Of a DNA stretch of 64,000 nucleotides, positions 9,261-40,156 are shown piece by piece. Location of the stretch: NCBI GenBank assembly GCA_951406725.2, contig OX597827.1, positions 75,826,001 to 75,890,000 of the forward strand. The letters run 5' to 3'. Numbering within the stretch: position 1 is the stretch's first letter; each line of letters opens with the position of its first letter. Source of the DNA: Octopus vulgaris (taxonomy: Eukaryota). Made by a program: the position numbers and the translations under genes. The notes under the pieces were generated by a model. That model searched no databases, was not told the origin of the DNA, and saw only the letters and a list, made by a program, of their open reading frames with translations.

Positions 9261-9282
9261 ATTTTTTTTTTTCATTTTTCAG
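9261..9282 (+). promoter_or_regulatory. Putative 3' splice acceptor of the ZNF coding exon
   Basis: T11-CATTTTTC-AG|G, 148 nt upstream of the ATG. Confidence 0.65.
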
Positions 9283-9430
9283 GTTCATCTAATTTGTTTT
9301 TAACAAATTGGATTTGACAAGAGGAGATTTTTGAAAATTCAGAGCTGTCACTCATTTGTTGTGGTATTTAAGCTATTTTTTTTTTCTAAACCATAAATTA
9401 TATTTGAAAGGCAGTTAATCTCCACCCAAG

Positions 9431-12220
9431 ATGGAGAGATCTGCTGGTGTTCCATTCCACTATGACATGTATGGGATGCCCTTCCACCCAGCTCATAGTC
9501 TTCATCCTCAACGAATGTCTCACATTCCTGAGAAATCAATACACAATACTCTGGCCTCGGCCAGCAAACATTTCAGCCACAACAATGATCATGCACTGGA
9601 CACCCAGCGTATGTTGCAAAGTCACTCTGTTGAGAAGTCACTGCACAGTGACCTGAGTCGGTCCCAGTACAGCCATGGTCATGTCTCTCACAGCAGCCAC
9701 ACATCAAACCATGCCCAGCAGCAACGAATTATGTCAATCGCTGAGAAGTCTCTACATCAACACAACAATGAACTGACCAGCAAACACCTTCACCATAGAC
9801 AGAGTTCATCTCATTCTCATACCTCGTCTGCATCTCATTCTTCACACAGTTCACAGAGGTTATCACTTGCTGCTGACAAATCTATCCTCAACAGTGTTGG
9901 TAGTTCGTCTGGTAAACACTATTCACACGAACATGTGCAGGCCTCACAGAGAATGTCGCATGAAAAGTCATCTCATAGTCCCAGCATCATGGGAAAACAG
10001 TTTTCTCATGGAAACTCTCTTGATACTTCGAGGATGTCACATGTTCCAGAGAAAAACATTCACAACAGCATCTCCAGTAAACAGATCTCTTCCCACAGAC
10101 ATAACTTGGAGAAGGAGAGAATAGCCTCACCAGTTGACAAACCAGACAACAACAGCAACAGCGACCTGTCTGGGAGCCAGTTCTCTCATGAGTCGACTAT
10201 CGAGAGCCAGAGGCTGCCACTGCCCTATATTGGTCAGACAGTGTTTCCTGGTAACAATATGTACAGCAGCCAGTATTCTCAGCCATGTTACTTACCGACC
10301 ACTGACAGAATGCAGTCAAGCTTGGAGGGCGGACAATCATCCAAGGAGAGTTCTTCTCAAAAGACCTCCACTTCTAGTATTGATAAATCATTCCATGGTG
10401 ATGTGTCTCAAAAACAATACGGCCCGAACAAACTCTCGCAGAGCTCCATAAAACAACATCAACAGCAGCCGCAAGAGGATGATGAGGAGGAGGAGGACGA
10501 AGATGAACAACCCCGTCACGCTCAACCCCTCAAACAGCTCTTCTGCGATTACTGCGGCAAGAAGTTTGCTCAGGAATATTTGATGCACATGCACCGAAGG
10601 AAACATACGGGAGAGAAACCGTTCCAGTGCGACATCTGTCACAGACAGTTCTCTCGCAGAGATGTCTTAAAAAGACATCGCAAAAACCACTTAGCAGAAC
10701 CTAAAGCTCCAATTAGCAGCAGTTTTCCAACAATGTCATCACCCCCAATCCAAAGCCCAGAAGCTCAGTCCCCAAAGTATCAACCTCACCTCCAAATGCA
10801 GGCTTCTTTATCTCAAAAAAGCAACTCCAGCAGTTATCAAGGAGTCTCACCTGATATTCCTAGATTTGAAGATCTTCATAATGTCTCAGGTGGGAAGAAG
10901 TTTTATTTTTGTGACATCTGCCACAAGCAATTTGCCCAGCGCTACTACTTAGCCATACACCGAAGATCTCACACTGGCGAGAAACCTTTTCAATGCGACT
11001 TCTGCATTCAGCGGTTTTCCAGAAAAGATACATTAAAGATCCATCGTAGAACACACACTGGGGAAATGCCGTTCCAATGCGATGCTTGCCCTGAAAAGTT
11101 TTCGCAGAGAATTAAACTTCAGATGCACAAGAAGACACATATTAGCAAGAAGAAATATCAGTGTGACATCTGTCACAAGCAGTTTGCCCAACGCTATTAC
11201 CTGCGCACCCACATGACCATCCATACTGGAGAAAAACGGAACCAGTGTGACATTTGCTTCAAGCAGTTTGCCCAAAGGTACTATTTGCAAATCCACAAGA
11301 GGCTTCATACAGGGGAGAAACTCCTTCATTGCGATGTCTGCTTAAAAAAGTTCACCCAGAAGCATTATTTGGTTATTCACAAACGAACTCACACCGGCGA
11401 AAAGCCGTATCAATGTGATTTTTGTATCCAGAAATTTGCACGCAAAACTACACTTCAGATTCATCGACGGACCCACACGGGGGAGAAACCTTTCCATTGT
11501 GACCTCTGTCCCGAACAGTTTGCTCAGAGCAACAAACTACGAGCTCATAAGAAGCTTCATGAGAAGGTTTCTCAGAAACGTACCTATGTTACCACCATCA
11601 CTTCAATAAAAGGTGACATGACAAAGAAACATTACCAGTGTGATGTTTGTATGAAGCTGTTTGCCCAGAGGCATTATCTGCAGGTTCACAAAAGGTCTCA
11701 CACCGGGGAGAGACCGTTCCAGTGTGAGATTTGCTTCAAACAGTTTGCTCAGAGAAACACATTACAGATACACAAGCGAACACACACAGGAGAGAAACCA
11801 TTCCAGTGTGAAGTCTGCCTCAAGAACTTTGCCCACAAACACTACCTGCAATTGCATAAACGGACCCACACCGGGGAAAAGCCGTTCCAGTGTGACTTCT
11901 GCTTCAAGCAATTTGCACAGAGGAATTCCCTCCATATCCACCGCAGGACACATACAGGCGAACGACCGTTCCAGTGTGACTTCTGTTTCAAAACATTTGC
12001 CCAGAAACACTACCTACGACTGCACAAACGAACCCATACAGGGGAGAAGGCCTTCCACTGTGACTTGTGCCCTAAACACTTTGCTAGGAGCGACACACTA
12101 CATCGCCACAAGAAGACCCACAACAAGACTGCCAGTAAACCTCCAAAGACTTCTTCAAACTCCATCAACAAAACGGTTGAAGAATTTCCTCCTATGAGCA
12201 CTTATTTGTGGCAACTGTGA
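9431..12220 (+). CDS. C2H2 zinc-finger protein, 929 aa, 16 fingers (clusters of 2+8+6), His/Ser-rich N-terminus, polyQ/acidic patch
   Basis: Uninterrupted 2.8-kb ORF with repeated CxxC-x12-HxxxH and TGEKP linkers; no KRAB/BTB-type domain recognised. Confidence 0.96.
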   Translation: MERSAGVPFHYDMYGMPFHPAHSLHPQRMSHIPEKSIHNTLASASKHFSHNNDHALDTQRMLQSHSVEKSLHSDLSRSQYSHGHVSHSSHTSNHAQQQRIMSIAEKSLHQHNNELTSKHLHHRQSSSHSHTSSASHSSHSSQRLSLAADKSILNSVGSSSGKHYSHEHVQASQRMSHEKSSHSPSIMGKQFSHGNSLDTSRMSHVPEKNIHNSISSKQISSHRHNLEKERIASPVDKPDNNSNSDLSGSQFSHESTIESQRLPLPYIGQTVFPGNNMYSSQYSQPCYLPTTDRMQSSLEGGQSSKESSSQKTSTSSIDKSFHGDVSQKQYGPNKLSQSSIKQHQQQPQEDDEEEEDEDEQPRHAQPLKQLFCDYCGKKFAQEYLMHMHRRKHTGEKPFQCDICHRQFSRRDVLKRHRKNHLAEPKAPISSSFPTMSSPPIQSPEAQSPKYQPHLQMQASLSQKSNSSSYQGVSPDIPRFEDLHNVSGGKKFYFCDICHKQFAQRYYLAIHRRSHTGEKPFQCDFCIQRFSRKDTLKIHRRTHTGEMPFQCDACPEKFSQRIKLQMHKKTHISKKKYQCDICHKQFAQRYYLRTHMTIHTGEKRNQCDICFKQFAQRYYLQIHKRLHTGEKLLHCDVCLKKFTQKHYLVIHKRTHTGEKPYQCDFCIQKFARKTTLQIHRRTHTGEKPFHCDLCPEQFAQSNKLRAHKKLHEKVSQKRTYVTTITSIKGDMTKKHYQCDVCMKLFAQRHYLQVHKRSHTGERPFQCEICFKQFAQRNTLQIHKRTHTGEKPFQCEVCLKNFAHKHYLQLHKRTHTGEKPFQCDFCFKQFAQRNSLHIHRRTHTGERPFQCDFCFKTFAQKHYLRLHKRTHTGEKAFHCDLCPKHFARSDTLHRHKKTHNKTASKPPKTSSNSINKTVEEFPPMSTYLWQL

Positions 12221-12779
12221 TCTGATGGCAATTAATGCCAAATAATGGCCTATATTGCATACCTGTGTTTGATAAATTCATTTTTTATTATAAGATCCTA
12301 TATCTTTATTTTGTGTCTGTGTGTGTGTGATAAAACATTTACAAATCTATATATCTATGTTCATTCTATGTGTGTATGTAAACGTGTGATATATGCTGCA
12401 TGTATGTATGCATATATGCGTGTATATTTGTGTGTATATGTATATACATGCCCTGCACTGGCATAACGTCGAACAAAACAGTTAGACCTTGATTATCTGA
12501 ATAAGACAGGCAAAGAGTATTTTTGTTTGGGTAACTGATCTGATCATGAACAAAGGCAGCCGTGTTGAACTTAATTGTGGGACCTCGAGATTTCGTTTGG
12601 GAAACTGATGTTCAGATAATTAAAGTTTAACTGTGCATTAAACAAATTAATTTTTAAAAAATGAATGAAATGAAAGCGTGACCTGGTGTCAATGAGCATT
12701 AACATAAAGAAACTGCTGGTCTTAACAAATACAAACATGTACATACAGGCACACAAAAACATATACATATATATATATT

Positions 12780-38710: not shown

Positions 38711-40156
38711 TTATGTTTGAGGATGGACTGGGCCCCACAGAAGGTTCCCTGGGCTGTATTCCTTGATGTTTTTGCACAGTGTGGGCTTCATAAATACCTC
38801 GTGTGTCCTTTTGTGGCTCTCCAAGCTACTCATTGTTGCGCATTCCTTGTTGCACACATCGCACTGGAATGACATGAGGCCGGCGTGTGTCGTCTGATGG
38901 ATCTGCAATTCATCCCGTTCGCTAAACTGCAGCATGCACACCTCGCAGCAGAACAATTTGCTCATAACTGCATGCACGTGTTTCTTATGTGCCTGCAGCT
39001 GCACTTTACGTGTGAACTGCTCAGAGCACATGTCGCAATCAAAAGGTTTGTCGCCTGTGTGCGTCCGCATGTGAATCTGTAACTTATCCTTGCGTGCAAA
39101 GTCCTTCTGGCAGACATCACACTGGAACGGCTTCTCCCCCGTGTGAATTCTACGATGAATCTTTAAGTAACATCTCTGGACAAACTGTTTGGGGCAGAGG
39201 TCACAGTGGTAGGGCTTCTCCCCCGTGTGGGTCCTTCGATGGATTTTCAAACGATCGCTTCGTGCAAACTTCTTCAAACAGATTTCACACATAAACGGCT
39301 TCTCCCCAGTATGGGTCCGTTCGTGGATCTGTAGTTTGTCTTTCAGGACAAACTGTTTTGGGCAGTAGTTGCAATGGTAAGGCCTCTCACCCGTGTGGGA
39401 GCTCATGTGAATCTTTAACTTGTCCTTCCTAGAAAACTGTTTCGTGCAGATCTCACAATGGAACGGTTTCTCCCCTGTGTGAATTCGTTCGTGGATTTGT
39501 AATTTGTCTCGGTGAACAAACTTTTTGGCACAAAACGTGCAATGGAACAGTTTCTCGCCCGTGTGCAGTCTCTGGTGCAGCTGCAATGCACTTCTCCTGG
39601 CAAAGCTCTTTTCACAACTGCCACAATGAAATGACTTGACTGGCGTATCAGCTTTCTGAATGACTGGCATTGATTGGTATTTAGGGAGACTGTTGACCCC
39701 TTGGTGGACTTTGTTGTCGTTGGTGCTCAACTGTTTGTCGTGGCCCTGCGGCAGATAACAGTTCGGGACAAGCTTCTGTGGTGGGGCAACGTTAGGCAGC
39801 ATTCCATGGGGCTGTAAGTAATAACTGGACAACTGGTTGTTATAAATGCCCCCATAGAAAGGTTTGTCGTTCAGGGTGGATATACGAGGAATAATTGAAG
39901 TGCTAGTTGTTGCTACTGTTGTTGCTGGGGATGGTGGTTGTGGTGGCTGTGGAGGGGGTGGTGATGCTACTGCTGGGGTCGACACAACTGATGTCGCTGC
40001 AATTGGCGGTGTCGATACATTGTTGGCCTGTGACAATGCTGCAATGGCCGAGGGCAGTGGCCCCTGGTTAACAGCATACTGAAGTTTTCTGGTATATTCT
40101 ATGGGTAAAGAGTTTTCAGTAGAATATTTTATAAGGCGGTTCGGAGCAGAAGACAT
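38711..40156 (-). CDS. C2H2 zinc-finger protein, 481 aa, 10 fingers, Pro/Thr/Ala-rich N-terminus
   Basis: Uninterrupted ORF with tandem CxxC-x12-H fingers and TGEKP linkers. Confidence 0.95.
   Translation of the reverse strand: MSSAPNRLIKYSTENSLPIEYTRKLQYAVNQGPLPSAIAALSQANNVSTPPIAATSVVSTPAVASPPPPQPPQPPSPATTVATTSTSIIPRISTLNDKPFYGGIYNNQLSSYYLQPHGMLPNVAPPQKLVPNCYLPQGHDKQLSTNDNKVHQGVNSLPKYQSMPVIQKADTPVKSFHCGSCEKSFARRSALQLHQRLHTGEKLFHCTFCAKKFVHRDKLQIHERIHTGEKPFHCEICTKQFSRKDKLKIHMSSHTGERPYHCNYCPKQFVLKDKLQIHERTHTGEKPFMCEICLKKFARSDRLKIHRRTHTGEKPYHCDLCPKQFVQRCYLKIHRRIHTGEKPFQCDVCQKDFARKDKLQIHMRTHTGDKPFDCDMCSEQFTRKVQLQAHKKHVHAVMSKLFCCEVCMLQFSERDELQIHQTTHAGLMSFQCDVCNKECATMSSLESHKRTHEVFMKPTLCKNIKEYSPGNLLWGPVHPQT

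Follow-up and report, generated by a model that had tools for sequence, protein, structure and literature searches.

Fossil C2H2 fingers form the N-terminal third of an octopus zinc-finger protein and appear to be kept by selection

Gene structure and layout of the N-terminal array

The 64,000-nt stretch of Octopus vulgaris DNA analyzed here (contig OX597827.1, positions 75,826,001 to 75,890,000, forward strand; hereafter the window, whose numbering is used throughout) carries a gene for a C2H2 zinc-finger (ZNF) protein of 929 amino acids (aa), encoded by one coding exon at 9431–12220 on the plus strand. The protein has 16 intact C2H2 fingers, two at aa 372–420 (10544–10690, +) and 14 at aa 494–897 (10910–12121, +). 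Ahead of them, the whole N-terminal third is a fossil array of about 10 finger-derived units, delimited by hand (U1–U10; aa 4–343, 9440–10459, +). An original prediction made from the letters alone had described about eight fossil, Cys-less fingers at 9500–10420; the array was recovered, with all five quoted units located in the frame 9431–12220, while its count and span had to be extended.

The reading frame is open from 9419 to 12220, and an in-frame TAA at 9416–9418 fixes ATG 9431 as the first start codon. Contigs from three runs in three studies start at a splice acceptor AG (9281–9282, +), so that the coding exon begins at 9283; a deep run reads through there, and the contigs were judged RNA-like by their stopping at the acceptor, no run being recorded as RNA. 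The loose end of one of these contigs maps to a non-coding exon 1 about 25 kb upstream, outside the window (G000:C14 near 75,810,460), which ends in a GT donor. On these sequence data, ATG 9431 is taken as the start of the ZNF protein, and a downstream start is without support. In this non-coding exon 1 (L019, approximately 1375–1464), inspection by eye revealed an upstream ATG whose frame, some 29 codons long, closes within the exon, a possible upstream open reading frame. A Pfam scan of aa 8–370 to E 10 returned no family, hence no KRAB, ZAD, SCAN, or BTB domain, and the ESM Atlas gave no match for the 929-aa protein. Over the fossil array, no A-to-G differences were found in contigs of four runs, contigs being assembly products that drop rare variants.

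U1 (9440–9523, aa 4–31), which begins upstream of the span first predicted, is the best register-perfect unit: it keeps the exact 28-residue register, both Cys codons are now TAT (Tyr), the first His has become Gln, and the last His is kept. It is homologous to unit 1 of the sister gene L067 and of P0058. U2 (9524–9625, aa 32–65; hand-delimited) matches L067 unit 2 (p 0.007). U3 (9626–9739, aa 66–103) carries a His/Ser insertion, and U4 (9740–9868, aa 104–146), the most decayed unit, a Ser/His low-complexity one; neither U4 nor U5 (9869–9961, aa 147–177) is significant alone. U6 (9962–10042, aa 178–204) has the canonical Phe-Leu-His spacing and is followed by U7 (10043–10129, aa 205–233), U8 (10130–10222, aa 234–264), and U9 (10223–10318, aa 265–296), a clade-wide unit in which the old recognition helix persists as QxC[YF]. 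U10 (10376–10459, aa 316–343) comprises a front half only.

Only one Cys occurs in aa 1–337, at none of the ligand columns, and the C-x2-4-C spacing of a functional C2H2 finger is absent. The H-x3-5-H spacing is likewise found in none of U1–U10: the first His is substituted in every unit, and the last His stands in register in U1, U5, and U6 and two residues late in U2. The predicted replacement of Cys by Ser, Gly, or Asn is part of the picture: Cys has given way to Tyr and Met as well, and the first His is also gone. His makes up 11% of aa 1–337. SDLS words in U3 and U8 were considered as a motif for CtBP, which binds PxDLS, and were rejected for lack of the Pro.

Descent from C2H2 fingers

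Sequence comparison indicates that the N-terminal units descend from tandem C2H2 fingers. A tandem finger profile with the four ligand columns masked scored 36–38 bits against about 11 ± 2 in shuffles (z 12–15), a result matched by 0 of 300 global shuffles, 0 of 300 local-15 shuffles, and 0 of 100 column-permuted profiles. Two finger sets were used, and one had been picked by similarity to the query. The reversed sequence scored at background, as did the internal spacer at aa 415–482, the negative control (z 0–1). The test repeated with non-clade fingers gave z 12.7; most of those proteins were themselves N-terminal-profile matches, the unbiased set being the clade's own arrays. The N-terminus of P0003, intended as a further negative control, scored z 3–5 and itself holds fossil units.

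Self-similarity within the N-terminus exceeded 200 of 200 shuffles of each kind under permissive gap costs. Finger descent, as predicted, thus surpasses composition-matched shuffles; of the finger hidden Markov model (HMM) searches suggested as a check, the masked profile was strong, whereas the plain HMM was marginal (its real score was reached by 3–8 of 300 shuffles) because Cys carries most of the finger-profile weight. An automatic single-unit scan located seven units, four of which exceeded the best of 15 single-unit shuffles.

Searches in the reverse direction agreed. Profile A1, built from four paralogous N-termini without any intact finger, had a consensus zinc finger (E 0.029) and ZBTB24 (E 0.18) at the top of its four PDB matches. 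Against 1.84 billion proteins it gave 50 matches, 49 of which have at least three intact fingers; 47 align inside intact arrays and three via their own degenerate N-termini. A profile of U8–U9 aligned to the intact fingers of the same gene with an hhalign probability of 88% (E 3e-6).

The codons at the masked columns are close to those for Cys: at the second-Cys column, 27 of 32 are one step from TGY against a background of 24%, and at the first-Cys column 18 of 32 are within one step, the 32 units sharing ancestry and thus not being independent. Of the 32 units, 16 have an aromatic residue at the second-Cys column and 2 have one at the first. The features by which degenerate C2H2 fingers are recognized are found here, namely a match to the non-ligand consensus beyond chance, relatives that retain part of the ligands, and codons near Cys.

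A clade of related genes with graded intermediates

Genome searches placed 13 related genes on contig C14, including two inside the window. One neighboring clade protein is identical, residue for residue, to an Octopus vulgaris record. When the masked test was applied to the 12 sufficiently long N-termini from C14 and seven outside homologues, 17 of 19 scored z at least 4. Fossil units occur in at least 12 genes of one clade on this chromosome. The number of units per clade gene ranges from 1 to 14. The 21 clade rows come together (94/97) when set against three outgroups on long branches; the cuttlefish protein P0059 (CAE1321465.1) nests within them and groups with P0057 and P0058 at 100/99. 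The source labels P0059 'KRAB', yet it has no KRAB Pfam match; the true start appears to be absent from its gene model, in which the first fossil unit is missing.

Ligand loss is graded across the clade. L058 keeps both His, the first Cys is kept in some units of L026, L057, L062, and P0010, and the second Cys is kept in L060 and P0041, so that paralogues retaining Cys, which the original prediction had proposed to look for, do exist. Because the L058 units bear the clade's helix signature, the fossils derive from the clade's own finger type. The QxC[YF] unit (U9 type) can be aligned in eight clade genes, and its Cys is invariant in 8 of 8. This Cys, in the unit segment at 10241–10300 of the window, does not correspond to any canonical zinc ligand, and no His is conserved as its partner.

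Among the large octopus-specific arrays, only 1 of 39 rows (approximately 35 loci) had at least 100 open codons before the first finger, a count made on the finger exon. The fossil feature is confined to one clade with roughly a dozen genes per genome and is not shared by the large octopus-specific ZNF expansions. The proposal that such regions were a source of effector domains for KRAB-less ZNF expansions can hold, at most, for this small, older clade.

The second clade gene in the window, P0003 (38711–40156, −), has one or two fossil units at approximately 39746–39874 and a related tail peptide. One finger of its intact array still has the QRCYL helix that U9 shows in fossil form. For P0008 (aa 1–90), the ESM Atlas offered no usable feature match, and structure matches had only template modelling (TM) scores under 0.4.

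Selection and conservation

The original prediction took about 900 nt without a stop or frameshift as a sign of function. The frame is indeed open, but this is no proof of function: the same exon goes on to encode the 16 intact fingers, which a stop or frameshift in the N-terminal part would eliminate. As no orthologue of the 929-aa gene was found in the protein searches, selection was gauged between paralogues and from protein conservation of sister genes rather than from a cross-species ratio of nonsynonymous to synonymous rates (dN/dS). Compared with L017, aa 1–60 showed 77% identity and a proportion of nonsynonymous differences (pN) of 0.11, with silent sites saturated; pN in the DNA-binding array was also 0.11. 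Over the U7–U10 tract, comparison with L018 gave 12 silent and three replacement differences in 134 codons (P 2e-6).

L067 provided the deeper comparison. Its fossil units share 49–51 of 82 residues (approximately 60%) with P0057 and P0058, orthologues from the squid/cuttlefish branch, whereas the rest of its N-terminus shares 28 of 145 and 34 of 139 (approximately 20–25%); the units are thus about 2.5–3 times as conserved (P about 1e-9 and 4e-8). Cuttlefish P0059 is identical to the L067 units at 36 of 82 positions, and octopus and cuttlefish separated about 270 million years ago. A gradient was also seen between L060 and P0041, with 59 of 114 residues identical in aa 1–120 and 11–21 per 60 further in. 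Conservation falls on the old aromatic core, on the Tyr that stands at the second Cys, and on helix residues, and not on the His-rich stretches; what is shared with the cuttlefish-branch orthologues consists mainly of aromatic residues along with Asp, Gly, and Gln, and not of His. Taken together, these comparisons indicate that the fossil units are kept by purifying selection.

Probable amplification after decay and likely gene conversion

Eight units of the 929-aa protein end in [QSE]R[MLI]. In U1, U2, U6, U7, and U8, which can be placed in a Leu-anchored register, this tail puts a hydrophobic residue at a column that is hydrophobic in only 4 of the clade's 196 intact fingers. Three fossil units are present in the sister gene L067: U1 and U9 match its units 1 and 3, U2, U6, and U7 match its unit 2 (p at most 0.007), and U8 and U10 lean to its unit 1. 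Mutual scores among U2–U8 were 31–62, compared with means of 18–27 against intact fingers, a difference that partly reflects shared composition. The middle units would have multiplied after decay because the derived tail is common to them and missing from intact fingers. Judging from these matches, the dead middle unit was probably duplicated several times, with support for some units only.

The tract over U7–U10 (10031–10470, +) is 99.3% identical in DNA to L017 and 97–99% identical to L018, in contrast to U1–U6, where silent sites are saturated between paralogues. L017 lies 0.45 Mb away on the opposite strand and L018 1.8 Mb away, and the genome contains three copies of the tract. Further near-identical tracts with L017/L018 were found at 10525–10638, 11699–11928, and 12007–12225 (+), forming a patchwork confined to coding sequence. 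The pattern suggests that U7–U10 were likely homogenized among three paralogues by gene conversion; the tracts also cover finger 1, parts of the array, and the tail, and the process is therefore not special to fossil units. An assembly artefact is unlikely, as contigs from independent runs collapse over 10040–10419 and break at the borders in both this gene and L017. Gene conversion among ZNF paralogues is already known, according to the accessible text of PMC2604467.

Between two converted tracts, 10460–10515 encodes an acidic Glu/Asp run here and poly-Gln in L017, with neither in L018. Close to their C-termini, L058 and L062 are identical over some 22 residues although they lie 1.1 Mb from each other, another possible conversion tract.

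The C-terminal peptide

A peptide of the EFPPMSxYLWQL type is found at or close to the end of all 21 full-length clade proteins (19 were caught by the pattern); in the 929-aa protein it ends in YLWQL and is encoded at 12179–12217 (+). The terminal form (D/E)E(F/Y)P P(M/V)SxYLWQL is common to the clade in octopus, Argonauta, and cuttlefish. Searches with the tail pattern yielded only known clade genes plus other matches, and the four of the latter that were inspected had no finger open reading frame. The peptide is reminiscent of terminal Trp co-repressor motifs such as WRPW. As a candidate second effector motif, it may be the clade's main one, and by its conservation it is a putative rival to the fossil N-terminus for that role.

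Predicted structure, mechanism, and alternative explanations

AlphaFold predicted aa 1–337 with a local distance difference test score (pLDDT) of 43.5, a predicted TM score (pTM) of 0.13, and no secondary structure, from an alignment of seven sequences and without metal; L067 aa 1–100 gave pLDDT 54.6 and pTM 0.15, again with no secondary structure over the units. The predicted disorder agrees with the original description of a new disordered or His-rich region. What is found is a set of conserved short hydrophobic motifs in a region that is predicted to be disordered and appears to be under purifying selection, one of the marks of an effector region.

We lean towards the reading that the N-terminal region of about 340 aa is a selected, disordered, finger-derived segment that would serve the DNA-binding array behind it as a multivalent platform, its aromatic motifs being predicted to bind co-regulators or other copies of the protein. 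The region descends from C2H2 fingers, as the intermediates in paralogues indicate, and under this reading three of its units would predate the octopus/cuttlefish split, which the L067 comparisons bear out for that gene and which may be extended to the 929-aa gene. The middle units appear, in part, to have multiplied after decay. Selection retains the aromatic core positions, the Tyr that has taken over from the second Cys, and the helix residues of QxC[YF]. No zinc fold is predicted; the aromatic motifs, with Ser/His/Gln linkers between them, might instead engage co-regulators or protein copies, and a KRAB-less ZNF clade would in this way gain an effector region from its own dead fingers.

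Several results weigh against this reading. Compared with L017, aa 61–201 are much less constrained (pN/pS 0.32–0.49, pS being the proportion of synonymous differences), in alignments that are uncertain because low complexity inflates identity. U3–U5 showed no useful excess over shuffles when compared with the ancestral middle unit (p 0.04–0.9). No orthologue of the 929-aa gene from other genomes was found in a set of 5.8 billion proteins, and deep conservation therefore rests on the sister gene. The masked profile also reached z at least 4 in 11 of 47 unrelated ZNF N-termini, eight of these at z at least 8, and degenerate fingers before an array are, as a kind, ordinary. In contrast to classic acidic activation domains, the region has no acidic character, with D+E at 8% and K+R at 9%. 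The AlphaFold inputs were thin (7–9 sequences), and low confidence can miss a metal-dependent fold; in ZNF750, low AlphaFold confidence hid a real one, in a domain with four ligands (PMC10465944, available in part).

The alternatives differ in how much of the evidence they accommodate. That a Ser/His low-complexity region resembles fingers by chance is hardly credible: the blank Pfam result, the marginal unmasked HMM, and the several units that are not significant alone would fit, but the masked profile, the reverse search, and the paralogues keeping Cys or His refute it. A tolerated fossil spacer is a more serious rival. The units would then have decayed in frame under a loose constraint on disorder or composition, and the real effector would be the C-terminal peptide, which is present in all 21 full-length clade proteins. 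Forced retention of the frame by the 16 downstream fingers, the variation from 1 to 14 units among clade genes, and the commonness of such remnants (11 of 47 unrelated ZNFs here; also the consulted portions of PMC2667407 and PMC2865497) are what a spacer would lead one to expect. We nevertheless consider it unlikely, given that U1–U2 are as constrained as the DNA-binding array, that the U7–U10 tract shows a 12 : 3 ratio of silent to replacement differences, and that the fossil units of L067 are about 2.5–3 times as conserved as the adjoining disordered sequence.

Two further possibilities retain a role for metal or fold. A region binding Zn or Cu loosely through many His and one conserved Cys, as a buffer or sensor, would draw on the 11% His of aa 1–337, on the Cys invariant in 8 of 8 aligned QxC[YF] units, and on the fact that some degenerate-class fingers bind zinc via alternative ligands (PMC10465944, in part). 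It is quite improbable, with one Cys in 337 residues, His-rich stretches that vary most among paralogues, and cuttlefish-branch-conserved residues that are mostly other than His. We give similarly little credence to a zinc-free, finger-like fold formed on binding, in which Tyr fills the metal site and a hairpin-helix meets a nucleic-acid or protein partner via the old helix. U1, U6, U8, and U9 retain the spacing of the core Phe/Tyr and Leu, aromatics are enriched at the second-Cys column, and the residues of QxC[YF] sit at −1, +2, and +3 of the helix, where intact fingers contact bases; against this stand the lack of secondary structure over the units in either AlphaFold model, the Pro often found after or within the old helix, and the insertions that disrupt spacing in U2–U5.

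Building on the disordered, finger-derived effector reading, we tentatively raise a more far-reaching idea that we regard as possible but doubtful. A dead finger may have served as the founding repeat of a coleoid-specific effector region with a distinct consensus (Tyr where the second Cys once stood, QRM as the tail, and a QxC[YF] helix), re-amplified to 1–14 copies, recruiting a co-regulator in KRAB-like fashion, with conversion swapping blocks between genes. If true, it would give a cephalopod ZNF clade a counterpart of the role of KRAB in tetrapods. Cephalopods have thousands of tandem-ZNF genes, and to the question of how these act on transcription without KRAB the present clade contributes two conserved effector candidates, one the N-terminal repeat derived from fingers and the other the C-terminal peptide. 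The clade also presents, in one genome, graded intermediates from a structured DNA-binding repeat to an apparently selected disordered region invisible to Pfam.

Comparison with known systems

KRAB, ZAD, SCAN, and BTB are folded effector domains of unrelated origin, KRAB typically lying on its own exons. The octopus region is unlike them in being finger-derived, repetitive, predicted to be disordered, and encoded in the same exon as the fingers, with no Pfam match. It resembles them as a conserved, clade-wide N-terminal region ahead of a variable DNA-binding array (accessory domains as given in the passages returned from PMC10547256).

Cephalopod finger arrays without ligands were not described in the literature that we searched, most subscription journals and supplements lying outside its coverage. 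Holzinger et al. (2025) report that coleoid-wide C2H2 expansion clusters have the highest expression (PMC12513265, main text). Like those clusters and the C2H2 clusters of the protocadherin chromosome (PMC9068888, in part), the present genes form a one-chromosome tandem-ZNF clade with octopus and cuttlefish members, and they may correspond to one of the coleoid clusters of PMC12513265. The main text of that paper makes no mention of N-terminal motifs, degenerate fingers, or conversion, its supplements and Dryad data being outside our scope; in the passages returned from PMC10547256 and PMC9068888, degenerate fingers and N-terminal motifs were likewise unmentioned.

The Z* domain of ZNF750, a zinc-binding CCHC module, shares with the octopus units a finger-derived, off-consensus sequence and a low AlphaFold score; it keeps four ligands, whereas the octopus units lack a Cys pair and retain no more than one canonical His (PMC10465944, from the part available). 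Degenerate C2H2 fingers are known in mammalian poly-ZNF and KRAB-ZNF proteins such as ZNF443, ZNF7, and ZNF252, where they likewise lack Cys/His ligands within or beside an intact array (PMC2667407 and PMC2865497, as far as their available text goes). Those mammalian cases are single or few and are called non-functional, and one of the two papers counts just those fingers that keep two or more ligands. The octopus array differs from them in its approximately 10 tandem units with 0–1 ligand each, which occupy the whole N-terminus, share derived residues, occur clade-wide, and appear to be under purifying selection. What is new compared with known degenerate fingers is thus the number of units, the loss of three to four ligands, the shared derived consensus, the spread across a clade, and the selection.

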